In this document: piece after piece, positions 2,573 to 40,361 of the stretch
How the letters are laid out: the number at the start of each line of letters is the position of its first letter
How positions within the stretch are numbered: position 1 is the first letter of the stretch
Source of the DNA: Myxococcota bacterium
GTDB taxonomy: Bacteria > Myxococcota_A > Polyangia > Polyangiales > Sandaracinaceae
Length of the DNA: 64,000 nucleotides
Direction: 5' to 3'
Assembly: GCA_036149055.1 (NCBI GenBank)
Contig: JAYZQJ010000069.1
Coordinates: forward strand, 64,001 to 128,000
Notes under the pieces: model-generated
Told to the model about the DNA's origin: nothing
Seen by the model: only the letters and a program-made list of their open reading frames with translations
The model's database searches: none
Translations under genes and position numbers: made by a program

Positions 2573-4095
2573 CGGTCGCCCTCCGGCGCGAGCTCCAGAT
2601 CCTGCCCGACCTCGAAGTCGGTGCGATACACGGGGTTCGGCGCCGCGCGGTCGTAGACGCGCTGCCCGTCGATGAACACGAGGTCCGCCCGGGCGTAGAC
2701 GCTGAACGGGTTCCGGTTCCAGACGACGACGTCGGCCATCTTGCCGGCCTCGAGCGACCCCGTCTGCTCGTGGATGCCGAGCGCCCAGGCCGGGTTGATG
2801 GTGATCCATCGCAAGGCTTGATCCTCGGTGATCGGGATCCCCGCGCGCCGGCCGGCGGTCATCGCCTTGGCCGCCTCCTGGTTGAGCCGCTGCACCAGCA
2901 TCGCGCTGTCCGAGTGGAGGATGCCCCGCGCGCCCGCCTGGGTGAGCAGCGGCAGGTTCTCCTCGATGGTGTCGTAGGCCTCGAGCTTGAAGCCCCACCA
3001 GTCGGCCCAGGTGCTCACCGAGACGTCGTGGCGCGCGAGCAGGTCGCGGATCTTGTAGGCCTCGACCGCGTGATGGAACGAACGGATGCGGAAGCCGAGC
3101 TCCTGGCCGACCTCGATCATGCGCGCCATCTCGTCGGCGCGGTAGCAGTGCATCTGGACCAGCACCCGCCCCTGGATGGCGCCGAGCAGACGCTCGAGGC
3201 CGAAGTCGCGCTCGGGGGGCAGCGGCGCCGGACCGGGATCGCTCGGGCCGTCCCCCGGGTCGGCCGCGTTCGGGTCGATCTCCCCCGCGGCGACCGCGGC
3301 GTCGTAGCGCTGACGATCCCGCTGCCAGCTCTGGTGCTCGGCCTGCCACTCCTCGAAGCCGCGCCCATACTCGATCGCGTCCTGGAACGCGGCGCGGTAG
3401 CCGTGCACGTTGCCCATGCGGGTCATCGGCGCGGACTGCCGCCCGCTCCCGTACACCCGCTTGGGGTTCTCGCCGCAAGCCATCTTGAGCGTCTCCGGCG
3501 CGCCGGGGAACTCCATCTCGCTCACCGAGCGGCCGAGGTGGAGCTTCACGATGGCGCCCGCGCCGCCGATGAGGTTGCCCGAGCCCGGCAGCACCTGGAT
3601 GGTCGTGACCCCGCCGGCCACCGCGCGCGGGAGCTGAGGATCCTGCGGCCAGAACGCGTCGGCGGCCCGCATCCCGGGGGTCACCGGGTCGACCATCTCG
3701 TTGCCGTCGGCCGTCGCGCGCACGTGCGGGCTCGGGTAGACGCCCATGTGCGAGTGATCATCGATGAGCCCCGGGGTCACGAAGCGCCCCGAGACGTCGA
3801 TGACCTCGGCGCCGTCCGGCACTGGCACCTCGTCGCGCGCCCCCACCGCGTGGAGCCGGCCGTTCTCCATCACGACGACGCCGTCTTCGACGGTCCGCCC
3901 GGCCGCGGTCATCACCGTGCCCCCGACGAGGGCGACGAGCGGCGACGCGACGGCCGGCGGATCGCTCGGCTGACGCTCCCAGGGGAGCGGCGGCGGCGCG
4001 GGCGGCTCGAGGTCGGCCGCGGACCGCGCGTCGGGCGGGCCCCCGCACGCGACGGCCGCGATCAGCAGTAGAGGGAAGAGGCGCTTCGGGGTCAT
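2569..4095 (-). CDS. Amidohydrolase family lipoprotein
   Basis: Lipobox AVAC; TPGLIDDHSH, KMACGENPKR, HCYRADE, FHHAVEAY, GSLEAGKMADVVVW. Confidence 0.9.
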   Translation of the reverse strand: MTPKRLFPLLLIAAVACGGPPDARSAADLEPPAPPPLPWERQPSDPPAVASPLVALVGGTVMTAAGRTVEDGVVVMENGRLHAVGARDEVPVPDGAEVIDVSGRFVTPGLIDDHSHMGVYPSPHVRATADGNEMVDPVTPGMRAADAFWPQDPQLPRAVAGGVTTIQVLPGSGNLIGGAGAIVKLHLGRSVSEMEFPGAPETLKMACGENPKRVYGSGRQSAPMTRMGNVHGYRAAFQDAIEYGRGFEEWQAEHQSWQRDRQRYDAAVAAGEIDPNAADPGDGPSDPGPAPLPPERDFGLERLLGAIQGRVLVQMHCYRADEMARMIEVGQELGFRIRSFHHAVEAYKIRDLLARHDVSVSTWADWWGFKLEAYDTIEENLPLLTQAGARGILHSDSAMLVQRLNQEAAKAMTAGRRAGIPITEDQALRWITINPAWALGIHEQTGSLEAGKMADVVVWNRNPFSVYARADLVFIDGQRVYDRAAPNPVYRTDFEVGQDLELAPEGDR

Positions 4096-4144
4096 GGCGG
4101 CGCGAGCATCGCACAGCCCTCTCCGCGCGATCCATCGCCCCCGG

Positions 4145-5209
4145 TCAGGGCGCGGCGCCGGCGCGCTCGAACATGAGGTCCATGTTGAGCACCGCCCCCG
4201 CCTGCATGCCGGTCGCCGCCGCGGCCACCGCCGCCTGCATGCGCGTGGTCAGGTCGCCGGCCGCGTAGACGCCCGGGGTCGAGGTCTCGCGCGTCCGCGG
4301 GTCGGCGACGACGAAGCCGTGCGCGTCGAGCTCGAGGCCCAGCCGTCGGACGAGCTCCACCTGCCGCTGCGGGGGGTGCGCGAAGAGCACCTCGCACGCG
4401 ACGCGGCCACCGTCGGCGAGCTCCACCGCCTCGAGGCGGCGCCCGTCCCCCACCAGGCGAGCGATCGGGCGCTCCTCGACCCGGACGCCGGCGCGATCCA
4501 GCGCGCCGCGCGCCTCGTCGGGGATCCCGCCCTCGCCCCCGGTGAAGAGCGTCACCTCGTCCGTCCACGCCGGCAGCTGCAGCGCGAACGGGAGGACGTG
4601 GCCGCCGGGATCGCCGAGGACCAGGAAGCCCCAGGGGCGGTCTCGCGCCTCCCAGCCGTGGCAGTAGGGGCACTGGAAGACGGCGTGCCCCCAGTGCTCC
4701 CGGAAGCCCTCGAGCGGGAGCATCTCGTCGATCATGCCGGTGCAGATCAGCACGCGGCGCGCCTCGACGCGCGCGTCGGCCAGGACGGCCCGGAAAGCGC
4801 CGCGCTCGCCTTCGATGGACTCGACCCGGGCGTCCCGGATCTCCACGTCGGGGTAGGCGGCGAGCTGCGCGCGGGCCACCCGCCGGAGCTCGGCCGGCGG
4901 GACCCCGTCGCGCGACAGGAAGTTGTGCACCTCGGAGGCGGCGGCGTTGCGGGGCGGCCCGGCGTCGCAGAGCAGCACCCGCTTGCGCGCCCGCCCGAGC
5001 GCGAGGGCCGCCGACAGACCGGCCGGGCCGCCGCCCACGATCAGGACGTCATGGGGGCCGTCCGGCCGACGCCGCGGGGGAGCCGGGACCGGGCCGCGGG
5101 GCGCGGGGCCCGACGCGCAGCCGGGGACGACCACGGCGGCGCCCAGGGCGGCGCTCGACTGGAGCCAGCGGCGCCGGGAGAAGGGGACATCATCGGAGGG
5201 GTGGGTCAT
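4145..5209 (-). CDS. Thioredoxin-reductase-like FAD oxidoreductase with Tat/lipoprotein signal
   Basis: SRRRWL..VVVPGC N-terminus; IVGGGPAG, CPYC, TSTPGVYAAGD. Confidence 0.85.
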   Translation of the reverse strand: MTHPSDDVPFSRRRWLQSSAALGAAVVVPGCASGPAPRGPVPAPPRRRPDGPHDVLIVGGGPAGLSAALALGRARKRVLLCDAGPPRNAAASEVHNFLSRDGVPPAELRRVARAQLAAYPDVEIRDARVESIEGERGAFRAVLADARVEARRVLICTGMIDEMLPLEGFREHWGHAVFQCPYCHGWEARDRPWGFLVLGDPGGHVLPFALQLPAWTDEVTLFTGGEGGIPDEARGALDRAGVRVEERPIARLVGDGRRLEAVELADGGRVACEVLFAHPPQRQVELVRRLGLELDAHGFVVADPRTRETSTPGVYAAGDLTTRMQAAVAAAATGMQAGAVLNMDLMFERAGAAP

Positions 5210-5291
5210 GGCGCGTTCATCGCGCGCCCCTCCCCTCCCGCGTAGAGCGCGGTTTGCGCCGAAATCGGCGGCGCCTTCGATCCGCCGCCGA

Positions 5292-6140
5292 TCAGCCCCG
5301 CGCGCCGCCCTGATGGCGCCGGGTCGCTCGCCAGCTCGCGGGCGTGCACCCGTGCGCTCTCCGGAACATCCGGATGAAGTGGGTGGGATCCGCGTACCCG
5401 ACCCGCTCCGCGATGACGTCGACCATCTCGTCGGTGTGCACGAGCCGGCGCCGGGCCTCCGCGAGCCTGCCGCTGATGATCCACTCGGTCCCCGCGCGGC
5501 CGGTGGTCCGGCGCACCACCGGCGAGACGTGGGAGGGCGAGCGCCCCACCGCCGCCGCGACGTCGCGCAGCGACAGCGGCCCCAGGCAGTGCCGCTCGAT
5601 GAACCGCAGCGCGTCGCTCGCGAGCCCCACGGGCGCGCCCGTGGAGGCGGCCGGCGGCATCGAGCGCGTGACCTCCGCGAGGATGAGCGCGAGCAGGCTC
5701 TTCGCGACGAGCTCCGTGTGGGGCGTCGGCGGCGCGCTCGTCTCGCGCTCCAGCTCCGCGCACAGATCGGAGAGGTGCTGCTGCCGAGGCCCCGGCACGC
5801 GGGTGACCTTCGCCGCGCCGGCGGCGGCCCGGGTGAACGGATCGAGCAGCGACGCGAGCTCGGTGGGGGCGTAGCAGGCCGGGCAGAAGCCGACGCCCCA
5901 GACTTCGGGCGCGCGGGCCGTCGTGACGCCGTGTCGGGCGCCGGCCGGCACCAGGTACACGTCCCCGGCCCGCACGACGAAGCGCTCGCCCTGATGCACG
6001 ACCGCGCTGCCGGCCGTGAAGAACGCGAGCGCCATGAAGTCGTGGACCGCCTCGGTCGGCAGGGAGCGCGACGCGTCGAGGGACTGGCGCTGCGCCCACA
6101 CGGGGCGCGGGTGCGCGAGCGGGGCAGCGGAGGCGCTCAT
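5292..6140 (-). CDS. AraC family transcriptional regulator
   Basis: N-terminal cupin-like region; C-terminal IAERVGYADPTHFIRMFRRAHGCTPASWR. Confidence 0.93.
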   Translation of the reverse strand: MSASAAPLAHPRPVWAQRQSLDASRSLPTEAVHDFMALAFFTAGSAVVHQGERFVVRAGDVYLVPAGARHGVTTARAPEVWGVGFCPACYAPTELASLLDPFTRAAAGAAKVTRVPGPRQQHLSDLCAELERETSAPPTPHTELVAKSLLALILAEVTRSMPPAASTGAPVGLASDALRFIERHCLGPLSLRDVAAAVGRSPSHVSPVVRRTTGRAGTEWIISGRLAEARRRLVHTDEMVDVIAERVGYADPTHFIRMFRRAHGCTPASWRATRRHQGGARG

Positions 6141-6168
6141 GCCCTCAGCCTAGGCGGCGCTCGACGCA

Positions 6169-6187
6169 GATGCAATTGGGTTACATC
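6169..6187. promoter_or_regulatory. Imperfect 8-3-8 palindrome GATGCAAT-TGG-GTTACATC, candidate operator (Zur/Fur-like or autoregulatory)
   Basis: AT-rich inverted repeat between divergent araC and zinT-like genes. Confidence 0.4.
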
Positions 6188-6311
6188 AGCGCCCAGAGTG
6201 AGGACGCCGCAACATGCGCCGATTCGACCACGCGAGGCGCTCTACCGGGCCGGCGGGCGTCGACGCAGAAGTGGGCTCCCGAGAATCCACTCACGACGGA
6301 GACCCCGACCG

Positions 6312-6896
6312 ATGCGCACCCGACTCTTCCTGTCCGCCGCGATCCTCGCGAGCCTCACCGGCTGCGAGGCGAGCGCCTCCCCGCTCCTGCTGTGGGAGGG
6401 CCGCTGGCAGGCGGCCGAGCCCCTCTTCCTCGACCCCGCGGCCGACTCCGCCTACCTGGCGGTGCAGGAGCTGCGGCCGGGGTACGAGCTCGACGAGATC
6501 CGCGCGATCGTCGCCGCGAGCTCGGACGTCGACTACACGTCGCTCGAGGTGACGGCGGACACGCTCACCTTCCTCGACGGAGCCGAGACGCTCTGCGCGG
6601 GACGGTACGCAGCCGCCGGCCCCGACGCGGGCGGGACGCCGGGCGCCGCCGAGCACCTCACCCTGGTCGAGACGATCGAGGGCGACTGCGGCCCCTACCG
6701 CTCCGCCTCGCTCGGCGGGCTCGTGCCGGAGGGCGACGACGTGCACTTCCACATCGTCACCGGCCCCGCGTCGGGGCCCTCCATGCCTCCCCCCTGGAAC
6801 CCCTCGGTCTGGAGCGAGACGATGACCCCCGAGCGCTTCGCCGCCGGGCTCGAGGCCGCCGCGCCGAACATCGCCAACCTGCTGCCCGAGCGGTGA
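6312..6896 (+). CDS. ZinT/YodA-like lipoprotein
   Basis: Lipobox LTGC; WEGRWQAAEPLF, HFHIVTG and WNPSVW resemble ZinT WDGVWQSVYPLL, HFHIFMG and NWPTYY. Confidence 0.6.
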   Translation: MRTRLFLSAAILASLTGCEASASPLLLWEGRWQAAEPLFLDPAADSAYLAVQELRPGYELDEIRAIVAASSDVDYTSLEVTADTLTFLDGAETLCAGRYAAAGPDAGGTPGAAEHLTLVETIEGDCGPYRSASLGGLVPEGDDVHFHIVTGPASGPSMPPPWNPSVWSETMTPERFAAGLEAAAPNIANLLPER

Positions 6897-6955
6897 CGCC
6901 AGCGCGGCGCCCGCCTCGGCGTGGCGGCGGCGCGATGCGGTGGTAGCTCTCCCGC

Positions 6956-7744
6956 ATGGCCCCCGAGGCAGGCACCGTCGAGCGCTGGGCGTGGGAGCTC
7001 GTGCACGCGACCACGCTCGCCGACAAGCTGACCCCGCCGCCGCGCCCCGATCGGTGGGAGGTCGCGCCGCCGCCGCGCCCCGAGGTCCGCCCGGGCCGTC
7101 CGCCCGAGCTCGACCTGCTGTCGCGACCTCCGAAGACCCCGAAGGCGGGAGCGCTCCGGGACCCGCGCAAGCGCGCTCAGCTCCTCCACACCTTCCTCCA
7201 CCACGAGCTGCAGGCGGCGGAGCTGATGAGCTGGGCGCTGCTCGCCTTCCCCGAGACCCCGCGCGCGTTCCGCCGGGGGCTGATGGCCATCGCCGACGAC
7301 GAGCTGCGCCACACCCGGCTCTACGCCGCGCACATCGAGCGGCTCGGCGCCGCGGTCGGTGACTTCGGGGTGCGGGACTGGTTCTGGGAGCGGGTCCCGA
7401 CGGTCACCTCCCCGGCCGCGTTCGTCGCGCTGCTCGGCGTGGGCTTCGAGGGGGCCAACCTCGATCACAGCGCGCGCTTCGCGCGGCTCTTCCGCGAGGC
7501 GGGCGACGAGGCGGGGGCGCGGCTCCAGGAGCAGGTGGGCCGCGAAGAGGAGCCGCACGTGCGCTTCGCGATCCGCTGGTTCGAGCGCTTCGCCGGCGGG
7601 CTCGAGTGGGAGCGCTGGCTCGCGCACCTGCCGCCGCCGCTCACCCCCATCGTGATGCGGGGCGCGCCGATCGTGCGGGACGCCCGGCGCCGCGCGGGCA
7701 TGAGCGAGTCGTTCCTGGACGCGCTCGAGGCGTTCGCGCCGTGA
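6956..7744 (+). CDS. DUF455 ferritin-like di-iron protein
   Basis: PGRP, HTFLHHELQAAEL, DELRH, EGANLD, EEEPHV ligand pattern. Confidence 0.85.
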   Translation: MAPEAGTVERWAWELVHATTLADKLTPPPRPDRWEVAPPPRPEVRPGRPPELDLLSRPPKTPKAGALRDPRKRAQLLHTFLHHELQAAELMSWALLAFPETPRAFRRGLMAIADDELRHTRLYAAHIERLGAAVGDFGVRDWFWERVPTVTSPAAFVALLGVGFEGANLDHSARFARLFREAGDEAGARLQEQVGREEEPHVRFAIRWFERFAGGLEWERWLAHLPPPLTPIVMRGAPIVRDARRRAGMSESFLDALEAFAP

Positions 7745-8568
7745 GCCCCGCCCCGCGCGCCTGGGTGCTGAACCTCGACGCCGACCGGGAGCTCGCGCTC
7801 GGGCCCGACCACCCTCGATCGACCGCGCTCCGCGCGCAGCTCCACGCCCACGCCGCGCCGGTGGCCGCCACCCTCCCCGCCGGCGACGTCTGGGTCGACG
7901 GGCCGGGGGATCCCCGCGGGCTCGAGGGCCGCTGCTGGTGCCCGACGCCGAGCGCGCGGGCCCGCCTGAGCGAGGTCGCCGCCCGCCTCTCCGCGCACGA
8001 CCCGCCGTTCGAGGTGCTCCGTCGCGTCAACGGCCGCAGCTTCTCGCACCGCCTCTGCCCGCTCGAGGGCGAGCGCGCGCTCCACGACCCGGACGCGGCC
8101 CGACGCACGCTCGAGCGCGGCCACTGGATGGTGCACCGCGAGCACACCTTCGCCGGGCGCGGCCACCGCTTCGTGCACGGGCCGCCCACCGCCGAGGACC
8201 TCGGCTGGATCGACAAGGGGCTCACCCTCGGCCCGCTCTTCGCGGCGCCCCGGCTCGCGCTGGAGCTCGAGGTCGCGCTGCACGGCCACGTGCGCCCGGG
8301 CGGGGGCGTCGATCGGGGCGTGGTGACCGCGCAGGAGGTCGATCGCGGGCAGTGGCGCCGGTCCGTGCGCGCCGAGGGGGCGCTGCGCGCGGACGAGGCC
8401 CGGGCCCTGGAGCGCGCCTTCGAGGCGGTGGCCGCCGCGCTGATCGACGCCGGCTACACCGGCCCCTTCGGCCTCGACGCCTTCCGGCACGCCGGCGGCT
8501 TCCACCCCCTGAGCGAGCTCAACGCCCGCTACTCGATGGGCTACCCGGTCGGCATGGGTGGCTGGTGA
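7741..8568 (+). CDS. Divergent ATP-grasp-like protein
   Basis: GTGA overlap with DUF455 gene; FAGRG loop, GYTGPFGLDAF, SELNARYSMG. Confidence 0.6.
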   Translation: MSPAPRAWVLNLDADRELALGPDHPRSTALRAQLHAHAAPVAATLPAGDVWVDGPGDPRGLEGRCWCPTPSARARLSEVAARLSAHDPPFEVLRRVNGRSFSHRLCPLEGERALHDPDAARRTLERGHWMVHREHTFAGRGHRFVHGPPTAEDLGWIDKGLTLGPLFAAPRLALELEVALHGHVRPGGGVDRGVVTAQEVDRGQWRRSVRAEGALRADEARALERAFEAVAAALIDAGYTGPFGLDAFRHAGGFHPLSELNARYSMGYPVGMGGW

Positions 8569-35270: not shown

Positions 35271-35729
35271 GTGAAGCTCTCGAACAAGGGGCGCTACGGT
35301 GTGAAGGCGATCTTCGACATCGCCTTTCACAACGACGGCAAGGCGACGCAGATCAAGGAGATCGCGGAGCGGCAGGCGATCCCGCCCCGCTTCCTCGAGC
35401 AGATCTTCCAGGATCTCAAGCGCGCCGGGCTCGTCCGCTCCAAGCGCGGCCCGCGCGGCGGCTACCAGCTCGCGGTGCCCGCCGCCGACATCCGCCTCGG
35501 CGACATCATCCGGGCGCTCGAGGGGCCCCTGACCCTCAACGCGCCCAAGAAGGGCGACGACGACGAGGGGGACGCCACCAGCCGCGCGGTCACCGAGGAG
35601 GCGTTCGAGGACCTCGCCGAGCAGATCGAGGCCTGCTTCGACTCCCGCACCATCGAAGACCTCTGCGAGCGCGGTGAGGCGCTCGGCTACCGCCGCGACA
35701 CCCCCGGCAAGTACGTCTACGTGATCTGA
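35271..35729 (+). CDS. Rrf2 family regulator (CymR-like)
   Basis: KGRYGV, FLEQIF, SKRGPRGGY; lacks IscR three-Cys motif. Confidence 0.92.
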   Translation: MKLSNKGRYGVKAIFDIAFHNDGKATQIKEIAERQAIPPRFLEQIFQDLKRAGLVRSKRGPRGGYQLAVPAADIRLGDIIRALEGPLTLNAPKKGDDDEGDATSRAVTEEAFEDLAEQIEACFDSRTIEDLCERGEALGYRRDTPGKYVYVI

Positions 35730-35754: not shown

Positions 35755-36662
<908 letters not shown>

Positions 36663-36666
<4 letters not shown>

Positions 36667-37370
36667 GCGACGCGCGCGTGCTCCTGGTCGGCGCCGGTGG
36701 CCTCGGCTCGCCGGCCGCCCTGGTGCTCGCCCGGAGCGGCGTGCGCCGCCTGACCGTGCTCGACGACGACGTGGTCGACGTCACGAACCTGCACCGCCAG
36801 GTGCTCTACGAGGACGCCGACGTCGGCCACCCCAAGGCGGAGCGCGCGGCCGCCCGCCTGGAGGCCGAGGGCGCGGTGCCCGAGGTCGTGCGAGGGCGCC
36901 TGCTCCCCGACACCGCCGAGGCGCTCTTCCGCGCGCACGACCTGGTGGTCGAGGGCGCCGACAACTTCGCCACCAAGTTCCTCGCCGCCGACGCGAGCGC
37001 GCTCACCGGCGTGCCGGTCGTGCAGGCGGGCGCGGTCCGCTGGAGCGGCTGGGCGCTCGCCACCCGACCCGGCGAGAGCGCGTGCCTGCGCTGCGTGTTC
37101 GAGGACATCCCCCGCGACCGGGTCGAGACCTGCGCCGAGGCGGGCGTGGTCGGGCCGGTCGTCGGCGTGCTCGGCGCGATCGAGGCCACCCTCGCCCTCC
37201 GGCTGCTCGGCGGCGACGCGAGCGCGGCGGGGGAGCTGTGGAGCTATCGCGGGCTCGAAGGGAGCCTGCGCGCGAGCCGCGTCCGACGGAGGCCGGGTTG
37301 TCCGGCCTGCGAGGGCGCCATCGAGGCGTTGACCTGGGAGCGCTATGCTCCGCCGGACTGCGCCGTCTGA
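36663..37370 (+). CDS. ThiF/MoeB-family E1 adenylyltransferase lacking the N-terminal RYxRQ helix
   Basis: Starts directly at ARVLLVGAGGLG; DDDVVDVTNLHRQ, CLRC, TCAEAG, CPAC. Confidence 0.9.
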
Positions 37371-37388
37371 GAGAAGACTGGAGACGTC

Positions 37389-37661
37389 ATGGCCATCACC
37401 GTTCGCATCCCCACCCCCCTCCGAAACCTCACCGGCGGGTCCGACGAGGTCAGCATCGACGGCGGCACCGTCGCCGAGGTGATCGACAACCTCGAGGCGG
37501 CCCACCCGGGCTTCAAGGAGCGCCTGCTCGACGACAAGGGCGTGCGCCGGCACGTGAACATCTTCGCCAACGACGAGGACATCCGCTTCCTCGACAACCT
37601 CGAGACGACGCTGAAGGACGGCGACTCGGTGCAGATCGTGCCCGCCATCGCCGGCGGCTGA
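37389..37661 (+). CDS. Ubiquitin-like sulfur carrier (MoaD/CysO family)
   Basis: VRIPTPLR, VNIFANDEDIRFL, C-terminal PAIAGG; GGAG RBS. Confidence 0.95.
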   Translation: MAITVRIPTPLRNLTGGSDEVSIDGGTVAEVIDNLEAAHPGFKERLLDDKGVRRHVNIFANDEDIRFLDNLETTLKDGDSVQIVPAIAGG

Positions 37662-37975
37662 TGCTCTCGCCCGAGGACAGGCGCCGCCACGCGCGCCAGC
37701 TGCTGCTCCCCGAGATCGGCGAGGCCGGCCAGCGCGCCCTGCTCGACGCGCGCGTGTCCGCCGGCTCCGACGTCGCCGCGCTCTACCTCGAGCGCGCGGG
37801 GCTGCAGGTGGCGCGCGGCGCAGAAACGCCCGCGGCGACCGCGACGCCCGAGCTGGCCGAGGCGGCGCGCTTCCTCGCCGGCGCGTTCGAGGCGGTGGAG
37901 ACGATCAAGCGCGTCGTCGGCGTCGGCCAGCCCGGTCGGCTCGACGTCTCGCTCCGGGGGCCGGGCGAGCGATGA
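37661..37975 (+). CDS. 104-aa degenerate mini-MoeB/ThiF protein
   Basis: TGATG and ATGA overlaps at both ends; RRHARQLLLPEIGEAGQRAL, ALYLERAG, AVETIKRVVG. Confidence 0.75.
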   Translation: MLSPEDRRRHARQLLLPEIGEAGQRALLDARVSAGSDVAALYLERAGLQVARGAETPAATATPELAEAARFLAGAFEAVETIKRVVGVGQPGRLDVSLRGPGER

Positions 37976-38898
37976 GGCACGGCGCGATCACGTCGATCGT
38001 CGACGCGGTGGGCCAGACGCCGCTCGTCCGTCTCCGCAACCTGGAGCGCGACTGCGAAGGGGACGTCGAGCTCTGGCTGAAGCTCGAGTACGCCAACCCC
38101 GGCGGCTCGGTGAAGGACCGGCCCGCGCTGCAGATGATCCGCGACGCCCTGGCCGACGGTCGCTTCTCGAAGGACCGCACGCTCATCGACGCGACGAGCG
38201 GCAACACCGGCGTCGCCTACTCGCTCTACGGCGCCGCGCTCGGCCTCCGGGTCGCGCTCGTGATGCCGTCGAACGTCTCCCAGGCCCGGAAAGAGATCAC
38301 CCAGGCCTACGGGACCGAGCTGATCTACAGCGACCCGATGGAGGGCTCGGACGGCGCGATCCGCCTGGTGCGGGAGATCGTGGGCGAGGAGCCCGACCGC
38401 TGGTTCTACCCGGACCAGTACAGCAATCCGTCCAACCCGAAGGCGCACTACCTCGGCACCGGCAGCGAGATCGTGGCCCAGGTCGGCGACCGGCTCACCC
38501 ACTTCGTCACCGGGCTCGGCACGACCGGCACCATGATGGGGACGACCCGGCGCCTGAAGGAGCACCGCGCCTCGATCCGCTGCGTCGCGCTCGAGCCGGA
38601 CGACGCGTTCCACGGGCTCGAGGGGCTCAAGCACCTGCCGAGCTCGATCGTGCCGAACATCTACGACGCCAGCGTGCCGGACGAGATCATGCCGGTCGCG
38701 ACCGACGCCGGCTGGGACATGGCCGACCGGGTGGCCCGCGAGGAGGGCCTGCACATCGGCCACTCGGCCGGCGCCAACGTCTGGGGCGCGCTCGAGGTCG
38801 CCAAGACGCTGAAGGAGGGCTGCGTGGTCACCATCGCCTGCGACCGGGGCGACCGGTACTTCGCGCCGATGAAGTGGGAGAAGAAGTATGTCTGGTGA
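37972..38898 (+). CDS. cysM: Cysteine synthase B / CysM-type PLP enzyme
   Basis: NPGGSVKDR, ATSGNTG, GLGTTGT, GLEGLKH; carrier and JAB context. Confidence 0.85.
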   Translation: MRHGAITSIVDAVGQTPLVRLRNLERDCEGDVELWLKLEYANPGGSVKDRPALQMIRDALADGRFSKDRTLIDATSGNTGVAYSLYGAALGLRVALVMPSNVSQARKEITQAYGTELIYSDPMEGSDGAIRLVREIVGEEPDRWFYPDQYSNPSNPKAHYLGTGSEIVAQVGDRLTHFVTGLGTTGTMMGTTRRLKEHRASIRCVALEPDDAFHGLEGLKHLPSSIVPNIYDASVPDEIMPVATDAGWDMADRVAREEGLHIGHSAGANVWGALEVAKTLKEGCVVTIACDRGDRYFAPMKWEKKYVW

Positions 38899-39388
38899 GC
38901 TGCCTCCGTGGACGCGCGGCGGGCTGTCCATCCCGCGGGCCCTGCTCGAGGCGATCGAGACCCACGCCGTGGAGGAGTACCCGAGCGAGGCCTGCGGCTT
39001 CGTGATCGGGCCGGCCGACGACGCGGCGAAGCTCGACGAGGCGGTGCGCGAGGTGAACGAGGCGGACAAGTACCACCGCCTCGACCCCGAGCGCTTCCCG
39101 CGGACGAGCCGCACCTACTTCAAGATCAACGAGCTGCGCGCGGCCCGCGCCTTCGAGGCGGGGGAGAAGAGCGGCCGCCCGATCAAGGTCATCTACCACT
39201 CGCACTGCGACGCCGGCGCCTACTTCAGCGAGGAGGACGCGGCGACCTTCTCGAACGAGGGCCAGCTGATGTGGCCGTGCGCGTTCCTGGTGGTCAGCGT
39301 GGTCGAGGGCGAGGTGCGAGACCGCAAGCTCTGGGTCCACGCGCCCGGCACCGACGACTTCACCGAGTCCCCCCTGACGATCTCATGA
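38888..39388 (+). CDS. JAB/MPN (Mec-like) metallopeptidase
   Basis: YPSEACG and YHSHCDAGAYFSEED (JAMM HxH..S..D). Confidence 0.92.
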   Translation: MSGELPPWTRGGLSIPRALLEAIETHAVEEYPSEACGFVIGPADDAAKLDEAVREVNEADKYHRLDPERFPRTSRTYFKINELRAARAFEAGEKSGRPIKVIYHSHCDAGAYFSEEDAATFSNEGQLMWPCAFLVVSVVEGEVRDRKLWVHAPGTDDFTESPLTIS

Positions 39389-39819
39389 GCGATCCCCGAA
39401 ACCCCTACCCCACGGTCGACGTGCTGATCGAGACCGAGGGCGGCCTGGTCTTCATCGAGCGCGCCAACGCGCCCGCCGGCTGGGCGCTCCCCGGCGGCTT
39501 CATCGACTACGGCGAGCGGCCCGAGGACGCCGCGGTCCGGGAGGCCAAGGAGGAGACGGGGCTCGACGTCGAGCTGCTCTCGCTGCTCGGCGTCTACGGC
39601 GCGCCCGATCGCGATCCCAGGCAGCACAACGTCTCGATCGTCTACGTCGGCCGCGCGACCGGCCGCCCCTCCGGCGGCGACGACGCGGCGAAGGCCGAGA
39701 TCTTCGCGCCCGACGCCCCGCCCTCCCCGCTCTGCTTCGACCACGCCCGCATCCTCGAGGACTACCGCCGCTTCCGGGAGACCGGCGCCATCCCCCCGCC
39801 GCGGCGGGGAGACGGGTGA
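39385..39819 (+). CDS. NUDIX hydrolase
   Basis: GGFIDYGERPEDAAVREAKEETG; RDPR. Confidence 0.93.
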   Translation: MSDPRNPYPTVDVLIETEGGLVFIERANAPAGWALPGGFIDYGERPEDAAVREAKEETGLDVELLSLLGVYGAPDRDPRQHNVSIVYVGRATGRPSGGDDAAKAEIFAPDAPPSPLCFDHARILEDYRRFRETGAIPPPRRGDG

Positions 39820-40361
39820 GAGCGGACCTCGAGGCGCGCGCCGCCGTGCTCGTGGCGGCCGCGCGCGACGCGATCGCGGCGGCGGTGGAGCCCCGCGCCC
39901 CGCGGATCGCGGCCGCCGAGCGCGACCCCGTGCTCCGCGCCGACGCGGCCACCTTCGTGACCCTGCGCCAGCCCGACGCGACCCTGCGCGGCTGCATCGG
40001 GGAGCTCGAGGCGCGCCGCGCCCTCATCGACTCGGTGCGCGGCAACGCCGTCGCCGCCGCCACCCGCGATCCTCGCTTCCCGCCGGTCACCGCCGACGAG
40101 GTCGCGCAGCTCCAGATCGGCATCAGCGTGCTCACCCCGCCCGCGCCGATCCGCCCCGAGCAGATCGAGGTCGGCCGCCACGGCCTGCTGGTCGAGCGCG
40201 CACCGCACCGCGGCGTGCTCCTCCCCGAGGTCGCGGTGGATCAGGGATGGGACGCGGAGACGTTCCTCTCGATGACCTGCCGCAAGGCCGGCCTCGAGCT
40301 GGAGGCCTGGGGAGACCCCGAGACCCGCGTCCTCGCCTTCGAGACGATCAAGCTGCCTTGA
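39816..40361 (+). CDS. AMMECR1 domain protein
   Basis: FVTL..LRGCIG, DPRF, GVLLPEV, KAG. Confidence 0.93.
   Translation: MRADLEARAAVLVAAARDAIAAAVEPRAPRIAAAERDPVLRADAATFVTLRQPDATLRGCIGELEARRALIDSVRGNAVAAATRDPRFPPVTADEVAQLQIGISVLTPPAPIRPEQIEVGRHGLLVERAPHRGVLLPEVAVDQGWDAETFLSMTCRKAGLELEAWGDPETRVLAFETIKLP

Follow-up and report, generated by a model that had tools for sequence, protein, structure and literature searches.

In the prokaryotic E1 enzymes MoeB and ThiF, the arginine finger comes from the neighbouring subunit (passages of PMC13139853), and the known bacterial E1s are homodimers, as stated in the sections covered here of the preprint by Chambers et al. (PMC10557695). The same sections describe two asymmetric solutions: the eukaryotic pairs NAE1-UBA3 and SAE1-SAE2, whose inactive and active adenylation subunits are different chains, the inactive one supplying the key Arg, and BilD from the BilABCD defence system, a fused pseudo-dimer of an inactive and an active adenylation domain (IAD-AAD) in which Arg9 is provided by the inactive domain (PMC10557695). 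A ThiF-fold heterodimer is also formed by the yeast cyclic threonylcarbamoyladenosine (ct6A) dehydratases Tcd1 and Tcd2, where an Arg59 finger is donated to the partner's site and is nonessential (passages of PMC13139853). Operon type 4c of Iyer et al. 2006 groups genes for ThiS/MoaD, E1-rhodanese, JAB and cysteine synthase; the words heterodimer, truncated and arginine finger are not used in the covered passages of that paper (PMC1779556). Here we analysed a 64,000-nucleotide stretch of a Myxococcota genome (the window), in which positions 36,663 to 37,975 encode a ThiF/MoeB-type E1 without its N-terminal head, a ubiquitin-like sulfur carrier (Ubl) and a 104-aa protein that we call mini-E1, or mini. 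We propose, with a probability of roughly 0.58, that this E1 and the mini form an asymmetric two-gene bacterial E1, made of a headless catalytic chain and a minimal inactive subunit. Our literature searches, in which subscription journals were mostly outside coverage, found neither a two-gene bacterial E1 that has a mini subunit nor the mini family described, and those on bacterial microProtein decoys likewise gave no account of the family.

The first key observation is that the operon E1 lacks the N-terminal helices bearing the RxxRQ arginine-finger motif. Its translation starts MSDARVLLVGAGGLG, only five residues precede GxGGxG, and the frame upstream of the start is out-of-frame cysK, from which the RxxRQ motif is absent. 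Residues 2-214 match positions 19-237 of the 238-position Pfam ThiF profile (PF00899), leaving the first ~18 positions missing, and the protein aligns with residues 27-246 of E. coli ThiF (139 bits) and 30-247 of MoeB (128 bits). The catalytic equipment proper is in place—the nucleotide loop GxGGxG, NLHRQ (42-46), K58, D100, C141xxC144, C213xxC216 and T156-C157—and these catalytic and Zn residues are invariant or nearly so among 19 orthologues. Both points bear out a sequence-only reading of this stretch, which had held that the E1 start is so tight against cysK that no room remains for the usual N-terminal helix, and that the nucleotide loop, NLHRQ, both CxxC pairs and the Cys of the TC motif are retained. 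A Pfam and NCBIfam scan found no rhodanese domain in the operon E1, which scores under all NCBIfam equivalog cut-offs (MoeB, ThiF, MoeZ and UbaA), with 181.7 against 449 for NF006444 and 157.8 against 450 for UbaA. The same genome holds a second E1, a 418-aa rhodanese-ThiF protein with the rhodanese part N-terminal and a complete head (L021 1015-2268, G000:C206 in our numbering), and such a full-length rhodanese-ThiF is also present in nearly all relatives. Among NCBIfam models, the headless E1 and the mini both match best to NF006444, the type to which the rhodanese-ThiF also belongs; judged from these sequences, the rhodanese-ThiF may resemble the ancestor of the other two.

The second key observation is that the segment of the ThiF profile missing from the E1 is exactly what the mini matches. 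The mini reads MLSPEDRRRHARQLLLPEIGEAGQRAL, followed further on by ALYLERAG and AVETIK, and SAGSD occupies the position expected for GxGGxG. There is no Pfam match for it and no Pfam or NCBIfam model dedicated to its family; its residues 2-48 match the N terminus of MoeB models (NF006444, E 1.3e-6), and a profile of 20 minis matches ThiF 3-56 (E 2.2e-7), Uba4 and MoeB 4-57, in an alignment that places mini R12 with ThiF Arg11 and MoeB Arg14. A weak second stretch of the mini profile falls on the EAIK helix of ThiF (198-219, conditional E 3.6e-4, independent E 63), and from the stretches matched we read the mini as an E1 minus roughly residues 60-195. The claims that the small gene carries the missing N terminus of the E1, and that it is devoid of GxGxxG and of the catalytic core, thus stand. 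The accompanying claim that the EAIK helix is kept in the mini and decayed in the E1 survives in softened form, the Glu and Lys being kept in about 13 of 20 minis rather than in all, and the supposed decay amounting, across the E1 family, to replacement of the Glu (L/A) and a change of the Lys mostly to Arg. The motifs common to the minis are R[YFH]x[RK][QH]..L.E[IV]G..GQ, YL.RAG and GA..A; the 20 open reading frames (ORFs) span 104-158 aa and vary through in-frame insertions in a linker. A candidate paralogue elsewhere in the genome (G000:C142:6380-6661, 33% identity, E 0.0025) proved spurious, as it lies antisense inside a 502-aa ORF. Modelled alone with AlphaFold2 (AF2), the mini is predicted with a mean local confidence (predicted local distance difference test, pLDDT) of 94.2 and a predicted TM-score (pTM) of 0.85, with helices at 4-14, 20-29, 37-46 and 63-86 and strands at 31-34 and 49-52. 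In a Foldseek search of the PDB, the best matches to this model are almost all E1-family chains, with ThiF, Uba4 and MoeB foremost (best E 7e-3), and 1zud aligns with a query TM-score (TMq) of 0.70 across a gap spanning the deleted core. The mini does not keep a complete Rossmann-like domain; what remains is beta1-alpha-beta2 and one helix.

The predicted E1-mini complex shows how the two pieces could fit together. One E1 and one mini were modelled, each with its own family alignment and with ATP riding along, in three runs with three controls. The interface score (interaction prediction score from aligned errors, ipSAE) was 0.93 in three runs, the best of the three controls scoring 0.01 (swapped-partner controls, 0.00-0.01); the pass mark is one that 116 of 157 solved complexes and 2 of 215 mismatched pairs reach, a calibration that holds only roughly because own alignments and a ligand were used. 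At least 97% of contacts are shared between the runs, and the pLDDT of the partner is 87 or higher. The contacts with the lowest error lie between E1 helix 165-176 and mini helix 68-79, and they are reciprocal: E1 169 meets mini 72, 75 and 79, E1 172 meets mini 68 and 72, and E1 165 meets mini 75 and 79. If mini residue n is equated with E1 residue n+97 by homology, these become 169 with 169', 172' and 176', 172 with 165' and 169', and 165 with 172' and 176', which is the pattern of a two-fold dimer and places the mini where a second E1 would sit. The mini residues G74, A75 and A78, which are invariant, are predicted to face G168, G171, A172 and A175 of the E1 helix, and mini residues 8-13 (RRHARQ) to touch E1 40-47, which is the NLHRQ segment. 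Conserved mini columns are enriched in the predicted interface (10 of 15, against 34 of 89 other columns; Fisher p 0.038). The sequence-only reading had named a complex prediction as its check, and the outcome, with the mini on the dimer surface of the E1 at 0.93 against 0.01 for controls and its residues 8-13 against E1 40-47, goes in its favour as to where the mini binds, R12 being a putative arginine finger.

The mini is not a peculiarity of one genome. A profile search against 1.84 billion representatives (50% identity clusters) returned 380 mini-family proteins at E<=1e-10, the best 150 of which are all 101-210 aa long; the named members are all annotated "hypothetical protein" and come from Myxococcota, mostly Polyangiales (named sources: Polyangiales, Sandaracinaceae, Polyangiaceae, Minicystis rosea and unclassified Myxococcota). 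Whole-length relatives occur in many of the 61 related genomes searched, and in a 251-genome sample of the phylum at least about 31 clear minis were counted among the best 150 of 190 matches, 27 of them in the window's order (its own genome included), three in other families of the phylum and one in the same class. Of 80 loci returned by a locus search with a 6-row alignment, 12 match the profile at both its ends; three of these are full-length E1s of the ordinary kind, and the other nine are small ORFs in Polyangiales-type records. The ratio of nonsynonymous to synonymous substitution rates (dN/dS) for the mini is ~0.40 over 16 non-independent pairs, with 0.35 in the N-terminal part, 0.39 in the C-helix, 0.58 in the linker and 0.64 in the tail. 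These sequence comparisons support a real conserved gene family rather than decay. The possibility that the mini would prove unconserved or in neutral decay, which would have spoken against the sequence-only reading, is at odds with in-frame conservation over 20 loci and with this dN/dS.

Equally telling is the company that the mini keeps. All operon E1s examined are headless, and a mini is present in 28 of 31 such loci, the 28 mini-adjacent E1s being that of the window, those of 18 loci with their 5' end in view and those of nine further loci (three outside the order). In two genomes, G025 (locus L043) and G168 (L139), the mini directly follows the E1, the order at L139 being E1-mini-JAMM, and tblastn found no Ubl at either locus; this arrangement is likely the precursor of fusions in which both parts are one protein. 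There are four such fusion clusters of differing origin (P0263-P0266), in which a headless E1 is joined through a linker to a following mini with RxxR[QH]; they are 355-365 aa long and 56-69% identical, and one is named HesA/MoeB/ThiF family protein, from a Polyangiaceae bacterium. The TC cysteine, invariant in unfused operon E1s, is lost in three of the four (P0263, P0264 and P0265), unlike in P0266, which suggests, on sequence grounds, a purely adenylating role for the fusions without it. No fused form was found in the 251 genomes searched, where the best matches cover the E1 part only; the fusions are known from protein sequences and may be gene-calling artefacts. AF2 modelling of P0263 from a shallow 4-row alignment gave a pLDDT of 59.6 and a pTM of 0.61, with the mini part below 50.

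Both genes belong to a run of overlapping genes on the + strand between 35271 and 40361. The window DNA is ~74% G+C, which makes long frames on other strands and in other frames expected, so that long open frames elsewhere carry no weight. The run comprises the following genes:

35271..35729, + strand: Rrf2-family transcription regulator, first gene of the conserved cluster (Pfam Rrf2, E 6.9e-38)
35755..36666, + strand: CysK-type cysteine synthase (TIGR01139, 373.5 bits, above the cut-off of 350.95)
36663..37370, + strand: headless ThiF/MoeB-type E1, 235 aa (Pfam ThiF, 186 bits against a cut-off of 28.1)
37389..37661, + strand: Ubl, a ThiS/MoaD/SAMP-like ubiquitin-fold sulfur carrier with C-terminal GG (Pfam ThiS, E 5.1e-16; NF041918 SAMP1, 63.2 bits against a cut-off of 60)
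37661..37975, + strand: mini-E1 (mini), 104 aa, with N-terminal helices carrying R9/R12/Q13, a degenerate beta1-alpha-beta2 and a C-terminal helix with G74-A75-x-x-A78
37972..38898, + strand: CysM-like pyridoxal phosphate (PLP) enzyme, candidate sulfur-carrier-dependent cysteine synthase (Pfam PALP; TIGR01138 cysM, 338.8 bits, under the cut-off of 394.2)
38888..39388, + strand: JAMM/JAB metalloprotease, Mec+-like (Pfam Prok-JAB, E 1.1e-16)
39385..39819, + strand: NUDIX hydrolase, overlapping the JAMM stop (Pfam NUDIX, E 1.1e-24)
39816..40361, + strand: AMMECR1-family protein, last of the overlapping chain (Pfam AMMECR1, E 3.2e-52)

The cysK/E1 and mini/cysM junctions are ATGA overlaps, and the Ubl stop and the mini ATG have one base in common; the overlaps around the mini suggest translational coupling. 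In RNA libraries of two studies, contigs run across the Ubl-mini junction (records 7, 13, 19 and 22), a weak sign that the two are co-transcribed, as RNA libraries can contain DNA; operon parts that such contigs leave uncovered carry no information. The gene order Rrf2-(CysK)-E1-Ubl-mini-(CysM)-JAMM-(Nudix-AMMECR1) recurs in 20 loci; CysK and CysM are both missing from 6 of 20 related operons, and JAMM is found in all those with that side in view. The Ubl C terminus is exactly GG in 8 of 18 orthologues and carries one to five extra residues in the other ten (R, H, KR, AQL, STH, RSQ, SGGA), which are presumably trimmed by the operon JAMM protease. In most related loci an Rrf2 gene precedes the E1; it lies directly upstream of CysK, or directly upstream of the E1 in operons without CysK, and its product may regulate the whole cluster in response to cysteine. 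In the window, the NUDIX and AMMECR1 genes each overlap the chain by 4 nt, and such genes recur downstream in many related operons. At one related locus (L035, genome G010, 3974-7749, in an 8-contig assembly), CysK, CysM and JAMM each appear as at least two tblastn pieces in different frames, which could reflect frameshifts or assembly indels, and the mini there has a tandem GATID-like repeat in its linker. In genome G009, which is 75% complete, the E1 and the Ubl-mini-JAMM group lie on separate short contigs (L134 and L135), the one with the Ubl running on upstream without an E1 in view.

The sequence anatomy, conservation, synteny and fusions documented above lead to the following proposal. 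The mini would be a miniaturised, catalytically dead E1 paralogue that has lost a catalytic core of ~140 residues and has retained two N-terminal helices with the RxxR/K-Q/H motif, the first beta-alpha-beta and the dimerising helix. In the predicted binding geometry, it would sit on the dimerisation surface of the neighbouring headless E1, forming with it a pseudo-symmetric heterodimer that has one active site. The N-terminal helix of the mini (R9, R12) would be set beside the NLHRQ segment of the E1, a place that is filled in trans by the partner subunit in MoeB and ThiF. Together the two would adenylate the ThiS/CysO-like carrier whose gene lies between theirs, and this carrier would then serve sulfur-carrier chemistry with CysM and the JAMM protease; the residues found after GG in 10 of 18 Ubls fit JAMM processing. 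The stimulation of adenylation and the pathway role are inferences.

A number of results weigh against this reading. Some come from one genus, g3, in which three loci in three genomes (L125, L126 and L128) have the order Rrf2-CysK-headless E1-Ubl-CysM-JAMM, with CysM directly after the Ubl, and a profile search at E<=1 that covered four of five g3 genomes, including two with 100% completeness, found no mini. Purifying selection acts on the g3 E1 (dN/dS 0.20, from a close pair), which shows no excess of change at the predicted interface (12 of 66, against 35 of 240). The g3 E1s form a clade (support 100/98) nested in that of the operon E1s of the order (83/85), the rest of which are mini-bearing, and two mini-bearing lineages of other families branch outside the larger clade, in a tree that is midpoint-rooted and poorly resolved in its deep branching. 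We read the absence of the mini in g3 as a secondary loss because of this nesting; together with purifying selection, such a loss implies that the E1 can apparently work alone. Mini position 12, the Arg14 equivalent, is R in 17 of 20 minis and K in three, R9 is Leu in two of 20, and passages of a 2026 paper report the MoeB Arg14 and ThiF Arg11 fingers to be nonessential (PMC13139853). Moreover, by sequence the C-helix resembles the E1 helix only weakly (hhalign of minis against headless E1s, E 0.14), no gene of the operon evolves faster than the mini in comparison with the closest relative (dN/dS 0.61, neighbours 0.07-0.45), and the pass of the complex prediction may reflect a memory of solved MoeB/ThiF homodimers, and so likeness rather than binding. 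The mini is thus more likely an enhancer or stabiliser than a strict requirement, given its loss in g3 and the reported dispensability of the MoeB/ThiF finger. Two broader points of the sequence-only reading are accordingly narrowed. Co-occurrence of headless E1 and mini across genomes, proposed there as a check, holds in 28 of 31 loci and fails in g3. The heterodimeric E1 itself gains from the conserved paralogue, the co-occurrence, the prediction and the fusions, and gives ground in that the dependence is not absolute, that the finger is nonessential in the passages just cited and that three of 20 minis have Lys.

Some of the same results can be turned into other explanations. The mini could be a regulatory decoy of the microProtein kind, competing with E1 homodimerisation so as to switch the E1 off or on, or keep it monomeric, and thereby tune carrier activation instead of supplying part of the active site. 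Its predicted binding surface is that of a second E1, so that mini binding and homodimerisation would be mutually exclusive, and both its dispensability in g3 and its fast evolution would suit a regulator. We nonetheless consider this unlikely, since the RxxR/K-Q/H motif, which has no role in the mere blocking of an interface, is among the best-conserved parts of the mini and is predicted to touch the NLHRQ segment, and it is exactly this helix that the E1 has lost in every lineage examined; E1-mini fusions fit a permanent subunit better than a switch, and the genes appear translationally coupled in one operon. Somewhat less probable again is a fragment complementation in which the E1 remains a homodimer and two minis dock by their N-terminal helices, as (E1)2(mini)2, the rest of the mini being a solubility handle. 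This would agree with the head being the piece missing from the E1 and with canonical bacterial E1s being homodimers (in the covered sections of PMC10557695), but the mini goes beyond the head, with a confident beta-alpha-beta and a long helix with invariant G74, A75 and A78, and in the 1:1 model these three residues are in the lowest-error contacts with the dimerisation helix of the E1.

The least probable alternative, to which we give little credence, is that the mini is irrelevant to the E1, serving CysM, JAMM or the Ubl instead or being a slowly decaying duplicate, with the E1 acting alone or with the rhodanese-ThiF. The mini is indeed missing from g3, its dN/dS is the highest in the operon, and a full-length rhodanese-ThiF with an intact head exists in this genome and in nearly all relatives. 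However, the mini is kept in frame in hundreds of diverged clusters, also beyond the order, with conservation concentrated in its folded parts; swapped partners scored 0.00-0.01 against 0.93; and when the mini is fused, it is to the E1 and not to other operon proteins.

If the asymmetric two-gene E1 is real, it has several implications. The wider claim—that myxobacteria independently evolved such an enzyme and cut its inactive subunit to ~100 residues, arginine-finger helices plus a dimerisation helix—is one that we advance tentatively, at slightly less than even odds. If true, evolution would have repeated, independently, the step from which NAE1-UBA3 and SAE1-SAE2 arose, the system would reveal how small a second E1 subunit can be, and the pared-down mini would define the irreducible job of the inactive E1 half. 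The mini could also act as a dosage-dependent switch of sulfur-carrier activation because it and a second E1 would compete for one surface. Nature provides three states for comparison, with the mini present, missing (g3) or fused, in a system suited to testing the role of the trans N-terminal helix and its arginine, which is disputed for MoeB and ThiF (passages of PMC13139853). Several hundred "hypothetical proteins" are also given a family identity.

Comparison with the known systems highlights important similarities and differences. The operon E1 has the same fold and catalytic residues as E. coli MoeB and ThiF, but unlike in these homodimers its catalytic chain has no N-terminal helices and its partner, a distinct protein of 104 aa, lacks a nucleotide site, so that each dimer here would have one active site instead of two. 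In the eukaryotic pairs, the inactive subunits retain an entire Rossmann-like domain (over 300 residues) and have additional domains, whereas the mini has only ~100 residues; moreover, unlike for NAE1-UBA3 and SAE1-SAE2, there is no E2 or ubiquitin-fold domain (UFD) here, and the origin would be independent, within Myxococcota. The difference with BilD is that there are two genes, fused in four clusters only, with a minimal IAD and a sulfur-carrier/cysteine context, while in the Tcd1-Tcd2 heterodimer both chains are full-size and the substrate is tRNA. In gene content, the operon is a variant of type 4c, with the same gene set but an E1 without rhodanese and an added mini gene. CysO, CysM and Mec+ constitute the mycobacterial sulfur-carrier pathway to cysteine. 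Like that pathway, the operon described here brings together a GG-ended ThiS-fold carrier, a JAB protease and a CysM-type PLP enzyme.

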